This document shows positions 3,468 to 54,568 of a stretch of DNA of 64,000 bases, in pieces. Source of the DNA: an uncultured Nitrososphaeraceae archaeon (lineage in GTDB: Archaea > Thermoproteota > Nitrososphaeria > Nitrososphaerales > Nitrososphaeraceae); contig CAVZZA010000003.1 in assembly GCA_963779615.1 (NCBI GenBank), positions 288,001-352,000 on the forward strand. The letters are read 5' to 3'. The number at the start of each line of letters is the position of its first letter. The stretch's first letter is position 1. The notes below the pieces were generated by a model. The model ran no database searches. It saw only the letters and a program-made list of their open reading frames with translations, and was not told the DNA's origin. The translations under genes were made by a program, and so were the position numbers.

Positions 3468-6400
3468 CTATATCGGGTTTGTTGTTGGGGAATTACTTTG
3501 CATCCATTCCAAGGTTTTAATAAACGAAATGGCGCTTTCAACGGTTGTAAGTACCGGTATGCCCATCTCAACGGCCTTCCTGCGAATCAGGTACTCGTCA
3601 TACAGCATCCCAACATACTTTTCCACGGTGGATGTCGATGGTATGTTGATTATAAAATCAATTTTTCTGTTGGTTAACAGATTCAGGATATTGGGGTGCC
3701 TTTCAGGTTCGCTGATTTTATAGACCAAATCTACGTTTTTAAAGCCAGACTTTTCAAAATATTCAGCAGTGTGTTCGGTTGCTAGGATTCTAAAGTTCAT
3801 CAACGAGATCATGGAAATCAATGGGAGAAGCTTTTCCTTATTTTTGATGCCTCCAACGGTAATTAAAGCTGAACCCGATAACGGCAACGAGTAACCCGCT
3901 GCAGTGTAGGACTTGGACAGTGCATCGTAAAACGTGTTTCCAAAGCAGGCAACCTCCCCGGTCGATTGCATCTCTACCCCCAACACAATATCTGCCCCCT
4001 CAAGTTGCATAAACGAAAATTGTGGCACCTTTATTCCAAATCCCGACTTTTTAAGCCAATGATCATTTTCTAAAGCGGGTAACTTAACTCCCAAAATTGA
4101 TTTTGCAGACAACTCTATGAGGTTTATCCCAAAAAACTTTGAAACAAAAGGCATAGAGCGAGATGCGCGGATGTTCGCTTCGATTACATAAACTTCATCA
4201 TCCTTAACAAGGTACTGGATATTAAAGGGGCCTTTAACATGAAGGGATTTTCCAATTTTAATGGTGTTGTCCATGATTGTGTCAATAGTTTTTCTGCTCA
4301 ACCTCCATGGGGGAATGCACATCATGGCATCACCTGAGTGAATGCCGGCGTTGTCAATGTGTTCAATAATTGAGCCAATCACAATCCTGTCGGAGCTCCC
4401 AACTGCATCTACCTCCACCTCAGACGCATCTTCCAAAAACTTGCTTATCACAATGGGGTAATCAGGGCTGACATTTGACGCTTCCCTAATAAATTGCTCC
4501 AACTGATCCTCACTCCAAACAACCTTCATTGCAGAGCCGCTAAGCACGTATGAGGGTCGGACAAGCATCGGATATTCTGCCTCCAAGGCAAAGTTTTTGG
4601 CCTTTTCCAGACTGGTAAAAATTTTCCACGGTGGTTGTTTTATCAGCAGCGAATCTAGCAGATTGCTGAACTTTGAACGATCTTCAGCTTTATCCACATC
4701 ATGGCTTGACGTTCCCAGTATCCGTATATCATAGTTATTTAATTTAGAAACAAGGTTATTTGCACTCTGGCCACCAACACATGTAACCAAACCAAATGGT
4801 TTTTCTTTCTCGCATATGTCCAATACCCGCTCAAGGGTTAATTCCTCAAAATACAGCCGATCAGGAACATCATAGTCTGTGGAAACGGTTTCAGGATTGC
4901 AATTGATAATAGAAATACTCTTTATCCCGTTCTCCCTTAAACCGTAAACCATGTTTACAGTTCCCCAATCAAATTCAACACTGCTGCCTATACGGTATGG
5001 ACCGGCACCCAAAACAATAGCGCTTTTGCCATCACCTGAACTAGGGACGTCTGAAACGTCATCATACTCACCGCCGTATGTAAGGTACAGATAATTTGTT
5101 TTTGCAGGCCATTCTGCAGCCAGTGTATCAATTTGTTTTATTACAGGGACGATTCCAAATCTTTTTCTAAGCTCCCTTACCTGATGCTCCTCAAGGTTAA
5201 AGCACCTGCCTATTTGTTTGTCAGAAAAACCTAGTTTTTTGGCTTCAGAGATCAAAGATATATCAAACTTTGATTTTCTTAATTTAATTTCCTCATCCAC
5301 AATGTTTTTGATTTTTACAAGAAACCAGGGATCGACAAACGATAGTCTGTTTATCCTGTCGATGCTCAACCCAATCTTCATGGCTTTTACAATATTGAAT
5401 ATGATTTCATCGTCTGGATTCATTAATGAGTATTCAACCTTTTCTATTTCAGATGTATCGGGGGAAGGCTCATCGTCGGTTTTTTTATTTGGCAGTCCAA
5501 CGTCTGAATCAGCACTGTTTGCAACCAGTCCGTCTTTGCCTATCTCGCACATCCTGACTGCCTTTTGGATGACCTCCTCAAAGTTTTTTCCCAATGCCAT
5601 AACTTCTCCCACAGACTTCATTGTGCTTCCGAGTTTTCGTTTTACCAACTCGAATTTTTTAAAGTCCCATCTTGGCATTTTAACAACCATATAATCCAAG
5701 GATGGCTCAAAACAAGCGGTGGTAACTTTGGTAATTTTGTTGACAAGTTCTGGAAGCGAGTATCCAAGGCCAATTTTGGCAGCCATATATGCTAGCGGGT
5801 AACCTGTTGCTTTACTCGCTAATGCAGACGATCTCGATAACCTGGCATTTATCTCAATTGCGCAGTATTCATCCGACTGCGGATTTAGGCCAAATTGAAT
5901 GTTGCATTCTCCCACTATTTTACAATAGGAGGTTGCCCTTAATGCAGCATCCCTCAAAAAATGATATTCATAATTATTTAGTGTTTGTGAGGGGGCTACA
6001 ACAATATTGTCTCCGGTATGGACCCTCATCCCAAGAACATTCTCCATATTGCAAACAATAACGCTATTTCCTTCGTGATCTCTCATTACTTCATATTCGA
6101 TTTGCTTCCATTCTCCAACGTATCTTTCGATAAGGACCTGGTTAACCATACTTAACGCAAGTCCCCTCTGGACAATCTCAAACAAATCATACTCATTATA
6201 GGCCACTCCTCCCCCTCTTCCTCCCAGGGTATAGGCAACACGAATGATTACGGGAAATCCTATTTCTTTTGATATTTTAAGGGCCTCCTCAAATGAATAA
6301 GCGGGAGCACTGCTTAAAACAGGAATGTTACTGCTTATCATTGCTTCCTTGAATTTCTGCCTGTCCTCGGTTATTTTTATCCCTTCAATTGAGGTGTTTA

Positions 6401-6771
6401 ACACACTTATGCCATATTTTTTCAATATGCCATTATCAAACAAATCAACCCCGCAATTGAGCGCAGTTTGACCTCCAAAACCGAGCATTATGGAGTCAGG
6501 GCGCTCCAATTCTATTATTTTTTCAACATAATTTCTATTGATTGGTAACAGGTAAACCTTGTCTGCAAATTTTTTGTCAGTTTGAATAGTGGCTATGTTG
6601 GGATTAACAAGTACACTCGAAATACTCTCTTCTTTGAGGGCTTTTAAGCATTGAGAACCGGAGTAGTCAAATTAGCGGCTAGATTTAAGTCTAGCTTTCG
6701 CCTGCTTCTCCGATTTTTATAGCTCCACTGCCCAGCACTATGACTTTTTTTATGTTTTTATTTTTTGGCAT
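3468..6771 (-). CDS. carB: Carbamoyl-phosphate synthase large subunit, split into exon 1 (6771-6697, 25 codons) and exon 2 (6671-3468); joined product 1092 aa
   Basis: Exon 1 MPKNKNIKKVIVLGSGAIKIGEAGE joins exon 2 FDYSGSQCLKALKEESISSVLVNPNIATIQTD..., in frame with the 3468..6509 ORF. Two ATP-grasp halves and a C-terminal MGS domain. Confidence 0.95.
6672..6696 (-). other. Putative 25-nt bulge-helix-bulge (tRNA-type) intron in carB mRNA
   Basis: Insert AGCTAGACTTAAATCTAGCCGCTAA between GAA(E) and TTT(F). Inner stem GCUAGA/UCUAGC, AAA bulge, 4-bp central helix GGCG/CGCU, second bulge/loop starting AAU. Cutting after the 2nd nt of each bulge removes exactly the insert. Confidence 0.85.
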
Positions 6772-6839
6772 TCCACATCATCAAATAATAATTATTTTAT
6801 CGAAACAGTGCAACATATTGATTTAAACTCATCCCTTTC

Positions 6840-7997
6840 TCAATTATTTTTGTTGCCGTTATTTATAATAAGATCTTTAAATTTGCTGAAAACAAACAAA
6901 CAATCAAATGGCCCAGGCGATGCTTCAGGGTGGAATTGGACGGCGATTATTGGCTTAGACTTATGCTTAATGCCCTCTACGGTTTTGTCATCAATGTTTT
7001 GAAACCATAGTTCAAATCCAGTGTCACTCAAGCTCTCAAGCTCAACACCGTATCCATGGTTTTGGCTGGTGATAAATGAATGGTTTGAATCAAAATCAAC
7101 ACATGTTTTATTTTGACCCCTGTGGCCAAACTTTAGCTTTTGCGTCCTTGCTCCTGCAGCTAATGCAAGTATTTGGTGCCCCAAGCATATTCCCAATGTA
7201 GGTATAGAACTGTCAATTATTTTAGAGGCAGTTTGTATGGTTTCACTACATATCACAGGATCACCAGGACCATTGCTTATGACAATTCCCCTCGGCCTGT
7301 ACGCGGTGACTTCCTCGATTGATGAGTCCCAAGGTAGCCTGATAACACTAAAGCCCGATTTTATCAAGTTTCGTATGATACTAAATTTTGTCCCGGTATC
7401 AATCAAAGCAATCAAAGGATCAGAGTCCTTTCCATAAAATTGGGGATTTTGGATTGAAACATCATTCATAAAGTTGTGACTGCCATAGTCAAATTGACCA
7501 CCTTTATCAACAGCGGTTGCTGTTGATTTGCTCTCACCATTGATTATTATTTTTCCATTCATCACCCCTTCAATCCTAATTTTTTTTGTTAATTCTCGGG
7601 TATCAACTCCATAAATCCCTGGAACTTTTTGTTGGTATAACCATTCATCCAATGTTTTAACACAAGACCAATGGCTTGAGACATTGGAAAGATCATTGAT
7701 GATAACTCCCGAGGTTTGAATGCCATACGATTCAAAATATTTTGGAAGGCCGTACTCATCCAAATCAAACTCGGACGGGACGCCATAATTTCCAATTGAC
7801 GGATACGTAAAACAAAGAATTTGACCCCTGTATGAAGGATCAGTCAAGGTCTCTGTATATCCAACCATTCCCGTGTTGAAAACAATTTCACCAGTAACCG
7901 TTTTTGGAAATCCAAAACCAACCCCGTTGAATATGGTTCCATCATCAAGTAATAGCTTTGCCTCATATCCGATATATTTGTTAAAAAGTGTCGGAAT
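6840..7997 (-). CDS. carA: Carbamoyl-phosphate synthase small subunit; N-terminus extends past the ORF-track start, probable ATT start (7997 or 8003)
   Basis: GATase motifs SNGPGDP, GICLGHQ and QFHPEASPGP. The upstream in-frame sequence EAKLLLDDGTIFNGVGFG...GEIVFNTGMVGY has no ATG/GTG/TTG before the TAA at 8007-8009. Confidence 0.9.
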   Translation of the reverse strand: MPTLFNKYIGYEAKLLLDDGTIFNGVGFGFPKTVTGEIVFNTGMVGYTETLTDPSYRGQILCFTYPSIGNYGVPSEFDLDEYGLPKYFESYGIQTSGVIINDLSNVSSHWSCVKTLDEWLYQQKVPGIYGVDTRELTKKIRIEGVMNGKIIINGESKSTATAVDKGGQFDYGSHNFMNDVSIQNPQFYGKDSDPLIALIDTGTKFSIIRNLIKSGFSVIRLPWDSSIEEVTAYRPRGIVISNGPGDPVICSETIQTASKIIDSSIPTLGICLGHQILALAAGARTQKLKFGHRGQNKTCVDFDSNHSFITSQNHGYGVELESLSDTGFELWFQNIDDKTVEGIKHKSKPIIAVQFHPEASPGPFDCLFVFSKFKDLIINNGNKNN

Positions 7998-8029
7998 ATT
8001 AATCCCTTAAATCCAAAAAAAAACCATCA

Positions 8030-53917: not shown

Positions 53918-54568
53918 ATGTCATTTGATGTCATTGAAGAGGAAAATAATAATTTAATTAATACTGACAACAATGTTGAATATATTGAGCGGTTGGACAG
54001 CAGTAATAGCAATAACAATAATGAATCAATATTACTTGCAGAGGCAATTATTCAGGAAAAAGAATTAAAAACAATTGTGAATGAAAACAAGGATAAAGAT
54101 CAACTAAGGAATAAAGGATTTGGAGAAAATTTTAATCAAGAATATATCCTTAGTGGTTTAGAAACTCTTTATCTGTTAAGCAACAATAAGATAAAACTTG
54201 TAGGAAAAAGAGAATATGATTTTTCTTCATTACTTAAAATGCTATTAAAGAAGGATAAAAAGATATTAACGAAATATTTGATTTATCGAGATTTAAGGAG
54301 CAAAGGATATGTAGTGAAAGAAGGTTTTGGATTTGGAATAGATTTCAGAATCTATGAGAGAGGAGATTATGGAAAAAGACCGTCGAAATATGTTTCTATT
54401 GGAATTAATGAAGGGTTAAATATAAAATCCAAAGATTTTGTAGATATGATAGATCAGATTGAAAATATGGGCAAGGATACCGTAATCGCAGTAATAGAAA
54501 GAAGAGGCGAAGTCATTTATTACAAAACAACTAAAATGTCTTTTTTTGAAAATAAAAAAAAGGGCTAG
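53918..54568 (+). CDS. endA: tRNA splicing endonuclease subunit (probably structural/beta)
   Basis: LSGLETLYL; YLIYRDLRSKGYVVKEGFGFGIDFRIYERG; AVIERRGEVIYY. No obvious catalytic His after the Tyr motif. Confidence 0.85.
   Translation: MSFDVIEEENNNLINTDNNVEYIERLDSSNSNNNNESILLAEAIIQEKELKTIVNENKDKDQLRNKGFGENFNQEYILSGLETLYLLSNNKIKLVGKREYDFSSLLKMLLKKDKKILTKYLIYRDLRSKGYVVKEGFGFGIDFRIYERGDYGKRPSKYVSIGINEGLNIKSKDFVDMIDQIENMGKDTVIAVIERRGEVIYYKTTKMSFFENKKKG

Follow-up and report, generated by a model that had tools for sequence, protein, structure and literature searches.

A bulge-helix-bulge (BHB) intron in the cbf5 mRNA of Crenarchaeota was reportedly described by Watanabe in 2002 and by Yoshinari in 2006, and it belongs with the closest described systems for the element analyzed here. 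This element is a 25-nucleotide (nt) insert at positions 6672 to 6696 of a 64,000-nt stretch of DNA (the window) from an uncultured Nitrososphaeraceae archaeon, a soil ammonia oxidizer (assembly GCA_963779615.1; contig CAVZZA010000003.1, positions 288,001 to 352,000). The insert interrupts carB, the gene for the large subunit (CarB) of carbamoyl-phosphate synthase. We conclude, with a probability of roughly 90%, that it is an archaeal BHB (i.e., tRNA-type) intron in the carB coding region that is removed by splicing. The carB intron is a new member of the class of archaeal BHB mRNA introns.

In the passages of Yokobori et al. (2009; PMC2738675) that deal with the cbf5 introns, these are 16- to 44-bp elements with relaxed BHB motifs that are cut by a hetero-oligomeric endonuclease and have a patchy distribution; Cenarchaeum and Nitrosopumilus are tabulated there without the intron. 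The carB intron resembles them in its shortness (17 to 52 nt in carB), its location within a coding region, its relaxed BHB motif with predicted cuts between bulge residues 2 and 3, its occurrence in hosts with a hetero-oligomeric endonuclease, its patchy gains and losses, and the pipeline miscalls that it entails. The two differ in their genes and hosts, since cbf5 encodes an RNA-modification enzyme of hyperthermophilic Crenarchaeota, whereas carB encodes a central metabolic enzyme of mesophilic ammonia oxidizers. Furthermore, the carB intron lies 25 to 28 codons from the start, and its outer exon-exon helix is enforced via synonymous sites. The splicing evidence for carB consists of environmental RNA contigs, in contrast to the culture cDNA or in vitro cleavage available for cbf5.

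A further BHB intron occurs in the 5' untranslated region of the HVO_1309 mRNA of Haloferax volcanii; in the relevant passages of Schwarz et al. (2020; PMC7714728), only cbf5 is reported as an mRNA case besides it. In carB, too, the archaeal splicing endonuclease would act on an mRNA rather than on tRNA or rRNA, but the carB intron interrupts the reading frame, whereas the intron of the euryarchaeon lies in an untranslated leader and leaves the frame uninterrupted. The carB element also resembles the noncanonical HBh'-type introns of archaeal tRNAs, with which it shares the arrangement of a helix (H), a 3-nt bulge, and an inner stem (h'), as well as similar sizes and probably the same enzymes. 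Unlike tRNA introns, it sits in an mRNA without a tRNA body to aid recognition, and its exons are also constrained by the protein. HAC1 and XBP1 mRNAs carry a short nonspliceosomal intron at stem-loops, which is cut by the nuclease IRE1 under stress regulation and, in animals, is joined by an RtcB-type ligase. The carB intron has in common with them a short length, stem-loop sites, nonspliceosomal removal, and a change of frame that sets the protein. It differs in that its nuclease is probably the tRNA endonuclease and not IRE1, and a stress-type switch is unsupported in carB. A search of the main texts of open-access papers and preprints found no paper on a carB intron or, for ammonia oxidizers among the archaea, on a BHB intron in any mRNA.

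Reading of the open reading frames (ORFs) in the window placed carB on the minus strand, with exon 1 at 6771 to 6697, the insert at 6696 to 6672, and exon 2 at 6671 to 3468. Exon 1 comprises the ATG and 24 further codons, the last two of which (GGC GAA) encode the Gly-Glu of the GEAGE motif, while exon 2 comprises 1067 codons plus a stop and begins with TTT GAC TAC (FDY). Read unspliced, the exon 1 frame continues through AGC to a TAG inside the insert. The FDYSG frame that starts at 6671 is immediately preceded by TAA and is then open for 1067 codons down to 3468, and removal of the insert gives a CarB of 25 + 1067 = 1092 residues. An earlier model-generated interpretation of the same DNA (the sequence-only reading) had proposed that 25 nt interrupt the conserved CarB motif GEAGE-FDYSG after codon 25, that unspliced mRNA stops at a UAG one codon into the insert, that a UAA stands just before the junction in the exon 2 frame, and that removal restores a full 1092-residue CarB. 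Every sequence detail of the first three proposals was borne out, and the last agrees with the frames, the continuity of the Pfam profile, and a gap-free alignment (see below).

The Pfam domains of exon 2 are CPSase_L_D2, D1, D3, and MGS. Because the longest conventional ORF of carB (3468 to 6509; 1013 residues) begins with a TTG, a gene caller would start carB at 6509, and the first ATP-grasp module would lose 79 residues. The window contains a single copy of the 25-nt string, and no further copy was found in the 3.17-Mb genome, even with up to 3 mismatches allowed. carB is a single-copy gene in this genome (92.5% complete): the sole other match was 27% identical over 300 residues, and the intact second carB that the sequence-only reading had named as a ground for abandoning its interpretation was not found.

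RNA evidence came from a search of sequencing runs with positions 5700 to 6900, which listed 20 runs (16 recorded as RNA; X2 to X4 and X9 labeled as probable DNA); contigs of four runs from four studies were compared with the window. The X1 contig (study P1; 899 nt) had 6 differences over the 447 letters aligned, and exactly 25 letters were absent at 6672. An identical 25-letter gap at 6672 was present in the X5 contig (study P3; 390 nt), which had 4 differences. Both contigs match the window at approximately 99% of their letters (protein identity to the nearest other genome is only 92%), and both lack exactly 6672 to 6696, as expected for a mature RNA without the intron. The X1 contig extends upstream of exon 1 past 6900, which is the end of the compared stretch and lies inside carA. 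As the X6 contigs do not reach the junction, the spliced form was found in two of the three runs spanning the site, the third (X7) retaining the insert. The spliced junction that the sequence-only reading had proposed to look for in RNA is thus present in contigs from two studies.

The junction is also exact at the protein level. Residues 7 to 25 of exon 1 correspond to positions 2 to 20 of the Pfam CPSase_L_D1 profile (E value, 0.001; 19.4 bits, which is under the 27-bit cutoff, for a 25-residue piece), and the first residue of exon 2 corresponds to position 21, so that removal of the insert joins positions 20 and 21. An intron-less homologue matches positions 2 to 117 of the same profile without a break. 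N termini spliced computationally by a script aligned gap free to intron-less CarB, and relatives show a conserved protein sequence for exon 1.

We parsed 90 carB loci, 72 intron bearing and 18 intron-less; 30 of these came from the search of 41 genomes (see below), and 60 were hand-picked from the order-wide matches to the exon pattern (44 with and 16 without the insert). Insert removal joins GAR to UUY in all 72 intron-bearing loci. In the 15 loci whose insert ends in AU, the sole border that keeps the invariant Glu-Phe is the one given by the BHB rule. This rule, according to the passages of PMC2738675 on cleavage, is that the cbf5 pre-mRNA is cut between the 2nd and 3rd bulge residues. Applied to the carB insert, it gives exactly the gene-restoring borders. 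The cuts anticipated from the endonuclease rule, GGCGAA/A and CGCUAA/UUU, which would restore GAA-UUU (E-F), agree with both the cbf5 rule and the junction of profile positions 20 and 21; owing to an AA/AA repeat, these predicted positions could shift by as much as 2 nt in the window.

The minimum-free-energy fold of 6725 to 6645 is the structure that the sequence-only reading had drawn. Its energy was -26.9 kcal/mol, compared with -15.3 ± 2.9 kcal/mol for shuffled sequences (z score, -3.95), and none of 200 shuffles was as low. All parts of the structure are on the minus strand. The outer exon-exon helix is formed by UCGGAG (6708 to 6713; codons Ile-Gly-Glu) and CUCCGG (6658 to 6663; codons Tyr-Ser-Gly), with 6713 to 6708 located in exon 1 and its partner in exon 2. 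The central helix H pairs GGCG (6699 to 6702), which is in exon 1, with CGCU (6674 to 6677), which is within the intron. Next to it is the 5' bulge AAA (6696 to 6698), with a predicted cut after its 2nd nt (i.e., between 6697 and 6696), and then the inner intron hairpin h' (6678 to 6695), consisting of a 6-bp stem GCUAGA/UCUAGC (6695 to 6690 with 6683 to 6678) and a CUUAAA loop. The 3' splice site AA/U (6671 to 6673) lies in an internal loop and has a predicted cut between 6672 and 6671. The intron takes in one nucleotide of the 5' bulge (the 3rd), the whole of h' (the 6-bp stem with its 6-nt loop), CGCU as the 3' strand of helix H, and the first 2 nt of the 3' site. The 3' site is in an internal loop of 4 to 10 nt, and the exon-exon helix begins 7 nt beyond it.

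The passages of PMC7714728 that define the canonical hBHBh' motif describe two 3-nt bulges on opposite strands with a 4-bp helix between them, each bulge closed by at least 2 Watson-Crick pairs (helix h toward the exons, helix h' toward the intron). The carB structure has the 5' bulge, H, and h'. It has the features of the relaxed (HBh'-type) BHB motif: helix H and one well-formed 3-nt bulge closed by h', with the other site in a looser loop. Regarding the BHB fold that the sequence-only reading had claimed, the outer helix, the GGCG/CGCU helix, the AAA bulge, and the 6-bp inner stem were all recovered, and what has to be amended is the canonical form, the motif being of the relaxed type.

To describe the distribution of the insert, 41 genomes were queried with residues 1 to 300 of exon 2, and the DNA upstream of FDYSG was then read. 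All 25 genomes of the genus (including that of the window) carried an insert of 25 to 32 nt at the same codon boundary, and among five loci from other families, three had an insert (21, 21, and 30 nt) and two did not. In the order as a whole, 209 of 251 genomes matched a neutral exon pattern that allowed 0 to 60 nt between the exons; the 42 genomes without a match are uninformative on the insert. An insert of 10 to 60 nt was detected in 120 of the 251, in many assemblies. By family, the insert was found in 48/56 (f1), 9/9 (f4), 23/57 (f10), 33/57 (f13), and 2/4 (f14) genomes, and in the single genome of each of f2, f3, f8, and f11. The exon-pattern search detected no 10- to 60-nt insert in families f5, f6, f7 (0/13), f9 (0/11), f12 (0/10), f15 (0/15), and f16 to f20. 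Some genera were mixed in this search (g10, 8/34; g14, 2/4; g21, 14/20). Genus g33 was also mixed (7/17) in a phylum-wide draw of 301 genomes, although three of its seven listed matches were chance matches outside carB. Among the matches listed from this draw, those outside the order were contiguous carB genes or unrelated chance matches, and none had an intron-like insert; the looser pattern used misses genes with differing flanking residues. Of 80 named Nitrososphaeraceae-type records, 77 had an insert of 20 to 52 nt, 2 were intron-less, and 1 had no exon-pattern match (its contig begins 33 nt before the match and leaves no room for exon 1). The nearest named relatives are metagenome-assembled genomes of "Candidatus Nitrosocosmicus" (85 to 91% identity).

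The 130 distinct intron-bearing sequences had inserts of 17 to 52 nt. Their lengths modulo 3 were 0, 1, and 2 in 37, 51, and 42 cases, respectively, and 112 of the 130 contained an in-frame stop in the exon 1 frame. The insert is thus not coding, because its lengths fall in all three phases and most copies carry a stop. Some Nitrososphaeraceae (L154, L170, and L176; G167 and G144) have 40- to 52-nt versions with A-rich loop expansions and an unchanged stem base and helix H. Judging from these genome comparisons, the intron appears to be old, vertically inherited within ammonia-oxidizing archaea, and precisely lost many times. Given its precise loss in many relatives, it is dispensable. The sequence-only reading had asked for a same-position insert with covarying stems in relatives and had named a strain-specific insert among its grounds for refutation; the insert is not strain specific, being present throughout the genus and in nearly half of the order genomes.

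Across the 72 intron-bearing loci, the structural elements are strongly conserved. Helix H next to the 5' site was GGCG/CGCY (4/4 pairs) in 58 loci and GGCG/CGCA (3/4 pairs) in 14, and two sequences had a compensatory GGUG/CACY helix. The 5' bulge was A-R-A in 71 loci and the 3' site A-[AGT]-U in all 72, while the inner stem varied from 3 to 8 bp and the loops from 3 to 37 nt. RNAalifold, applied to 69 distinct sequences, independently predicted the outer helix, helix H, and the inner stem. In these 69 sequences, 95.6% of the cells of the assigned structure were paired, versus 86.6% in shuffles, and there were 129 double-change cells versus 46 (none of 500 shuffles was as high); as the loci are partly hand-picked and related by descent, these shuffle statistics overstate independence and are not probabilities. 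Sliding the partners by 1 to 3 columns lowered the pairing to 24 to 52%. Compensatory double changes affected 5 of the 6 inner-stem pairs and 1 of the 4 helix H pairs, which supplies the stem covariation whose absence would have counted against an intron in the sequence-only reading. When the 130 sequences were folded singly, minimum-energy structures contained helix H in 114, the inner stem in 126, an unpaired bulge in 116, and the whole site geometry in 92.

The 3rd nt of the 5' bulge is U (GAA-U-GUC..) in one group of relatives (G209, G223, G150, G194, and G064; L150, L156, L162, L163, L167, and L175) and C in one sequence. This nucleotide therefore tolerates change, unlike the two before it in the bulge, which belong to the Glu codon and are fixed by it.

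The exons flanking the insert showed constraint at synonymous sites. In the intron-bearing loci, the junction codons were nearly fixed (ATC, 63/72; GGA, 68/72; GGC, 70/72; GAC, 68/72; TAC, 72/72), whereas the 18 intron-less genes used all synonyms at those codons. Similarly, the outer helix was complementary at 6/6 positions in 128 of the 130 sequences that have the intron, as opposed to 2 of 20 that lack it. Synonymous fixation that occurs only with the insert present is expected if selection maintains the RNA structure, including its exon parts, only as long as the intron is there.

The genome encodes the components needed for removal of such an intron. Two diverged EndA paralogues were detected (PF01974 matches at 99 and 73 bits; 31% identical over 74 aligned residues). 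The alpha-like paralogue, which is on another contig, matches fused EndA models in their C-terminal half, which is the catalytic one. The beta-like paralogue (53918 to 54568, plus strand) aligns to the N-terminal half of these models and weakly to subunit-beta models; it is ~47 kb from carB in the window and is probably functionally unlinked to it. RtcB is also encoded (569 bits), and Aragorn called an intron in 16 of the 38 tRNA genes of the genome. In the passages of PMC5829648 on endonuclease types, an (alpha beta)2 endonuclease, which is the type that cuts relaxed motifs, is reported for Thaumarchaeota. Both EndA subunit types and RtcB are therefore at hand, and the two subunits probably assemble into a heterotetramer.

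A genome-wide scan for BHB-like hairpins joining two open frames gave 9060 loose and 76 strict hits; it recovered carB and is uninformative on further mRNA introns, and most of the other 75 strict hits were AT-rich hairpins that had weak helices and lay at gene boundaries. Outside the window, the scan also showed an identical 32-nt GC-containing hairpin context twice in opposite orientations on contig C1, at ~271,960 (plus strand) and 552,970 (reverse-complement count), which probably represents a repeated gene or element.

On this basis, we propose the following course of events. In the pre-mRNA, GGCG of exon 1 would pair with CGCU of the intron to form the 4-bp central helix, flanked on its intron side by the A-A-A bulge and the 6-bp hairpin, and the UCGGAG/CUCCGG helix would bring the exon ends together. 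A putative alpha/beta EndA heterotetramer would then cut the 5' bulge behind its 2nd nt and the 3' side at the symmetric position past helix H, and RtcB would ligate GAA to UUU, giving the 1092-residue CarB with an unbroken GEAGE-FDYSG. Unspliced RNA would yield only a 26-residue peptide. We infer EndA and RtcB as the responsible enzymes. A BHB intron is strongly supported by the conservation of the site, the covariation of the stems, the synonymous constraint in the exons, the exact domain junction, and the RNA-derived contigs from two studies.

Several observations weigh against this conclusion. The 3' splice site lies in a larger internal loop and not in a closed 3-nt bulge, there is a 5 by 10-nt internal loop between helix H and the outer helix, and the structure consequently departs from the canonical hBHBh' definition in its unclosed 3' bulge. 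The outermost pair of helix H is a G-A mismatch in 14 of the 72 loci, and the outer helix is missing in 2 of the 130 intron-bearing sequences, both from one family. The covariation statistics carry the dependence among loci mentioned above. In addition, the RNA support consists of assembled soil metatranscriptome contigs and not of reads, such libraries can hold DNA, and the X7 contig (408 nt) retains the insert. This contig may represent pre-mRNA or DNA of a close strain; it has two differences in the intron loop (6685 and 6686) and a 1-nt gap at 6745 in an A-run of exon 1, which may be a homopolymer error.

The last of these points would fit an artefactual gap in the RNA contigs, produced by a skip over the hairpin during reverse transcription or assembly or contributed by the DNA or RNA of an intron-less strain. 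Contigs lose minor variants, the 2-nt AA repeat at both borders also permits a template-switch deletion by reverse transcriptase, intron-less alleles exist in other genera, and one run is unspliced. However, two studies that used different library types show an identical, exactly frame-restoring gap, and all 25 genomes of the genus carry the insert, with the contigs matching the window at approximately 99% and the nearest other genome at 92% in protein identity. Moreover, conservation, covariation, and exon constraint demand removal of the insert from a single-copy essential gene independently of the RNA, and we regard such an artefact as very unlikely. Irregularity of the 3' site, for its part, could mean that the RNA cleaves itself or that another nuclease and another ligase take the places of EndA and RtcB. 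Against this, the geometry and the cut positions obey the BHB rule, relaxed motifs are known substrates of heteromeric EndA in the pertinent passages of PMC2738675 and PMC5829648, and the genome encodes both EndA subunit types and RtcB. With an insert of 17 to 52 nt, which appears to be far below the size of group I or II ribozymes, self-cleavage fares no better, and removal by other means is very unlikely.

Two further explanations dispense with splicing altogether. Bypass of the phage T4 gene 60 type involves matched take-off and landing codons, and the gap is kept in the mRNA. A ribosome that hops over the unspliced carB insert in this way, or programmed frameshifts, might be considered because the insert is short and because a stop and a hairpin follow soon after the last sense codon, superficially like the gene 60 take-off site. 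The carB locus has no such pair of codons (GAA precedes the insert, whose end offers no GAA or GAG to land on), the inserts fall in all phases, and the conserved features (helix H, the A-R-A bulge, and the exon-exon helix) are those of a BHB motif and not of a bypass element. RNA contigs from two studies that lack the 25 nt make bypass needless, and we consider it highly improbable. The gene is broken if read literally, with a longest conventional ORF that starts at a TTG, and it could accordingly be taken for a pseudogene, or the insert for an assembly or sequencing error or the recent footprint of a mobile element. This carB is nevertheless the sole copy, carA is intact upstream, exon 2 is open with all domains, exon 1 is conserved as protein across relatives, and the insert recurs at this site in many assemblies while its 25-mer is unique in the genome. 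The comparative data already refute this explanation, and its chance of being correct is next to nil. Three other identities of the insert were rejected: an intein (there are stops and frameshifts within the insert), a group I or II intron (the insert is too small), and a mobile-element footprint (the 25-mer is unique).

If the insert is a BHB intron, it might in addition act as a gate on the production of carbamoyl-phosphate synthase, with splicing competing with the first round of translation. Such competition is conceivable because the intron lies 25 codons into the gene and a ribosome would melt the exon-exon helix that splicing requires. The synonymous conservation of the outer helix across families and the apparently unusual AUU/AUA start of carA (see below) are compatible with a gate, a role that we nonetheless hold to be doubtful. 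The regulatory switch analogous to HAC1/XBP1 splicing that the sequence-only reading suggested likewise goes further than the evidence. If the gate were real, the yield of CarB and hence the supply of arginine and pyrimidines would be coupled to the capacity of EndA and RtcB, to temperature-dependent RNA folding, or to the rate of translation initiation.

The neighboring gene carA (6840 to 8003, minus strand) encodes the glutamine amidotransferase small subunit (Pfam GATase and CPSase_sm_chain), and its stop is 68 nt upstream of the carB ATG. Its start codon is uncertain. At the 5' end of carA (7990 to 8010), there is no in-frame ATG, GTG, or TTG upstream of the conserved N-terminal domain; a stop is located at 8009 to 8007, and the first in-frame ATG (at 7868) would cost ~46 conserved residues. 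The peptide ..IPTL[FL].. is conserved across the genus with synonymous changes. Ahead of it stand a Shine-Dalgarno-like RAGGG and, next, a codon that is ATT or ATA in the genus but ATG or TTG in other families. This pattern suggests that carA starts with AUU or AUA in this genus.

On the state of knowledge given by Schwarz et al. (2020), the carB intron is, besides cbf5, the second archaeal intron of this kind to interrupt a reading frame; it does so in a central metabolic gene of globally abundant ammonia oxidizers, with RNA support obtained in situ. In the order, the intron is present in approximately half of the sampled genomes and has been precisely lost from the other half, in some cases with both states in a single genus, which amounts to a natural experiment. 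This experiment opens to study how the intron is lost, how the splicing motif constrains exons, and which rules govern the substrates of heteromeric endonucleases. Gene callers will give carB an internal start or flag it as broken, and the entries for this gene in protein databases and pathway reconstructions of these organisms probably contain systematic errors. CarB production in the intron-bearing archaea depends on RNA splicing, and the intron invites a transcriptome-driven search for more archaeal mRNA BHB introns.

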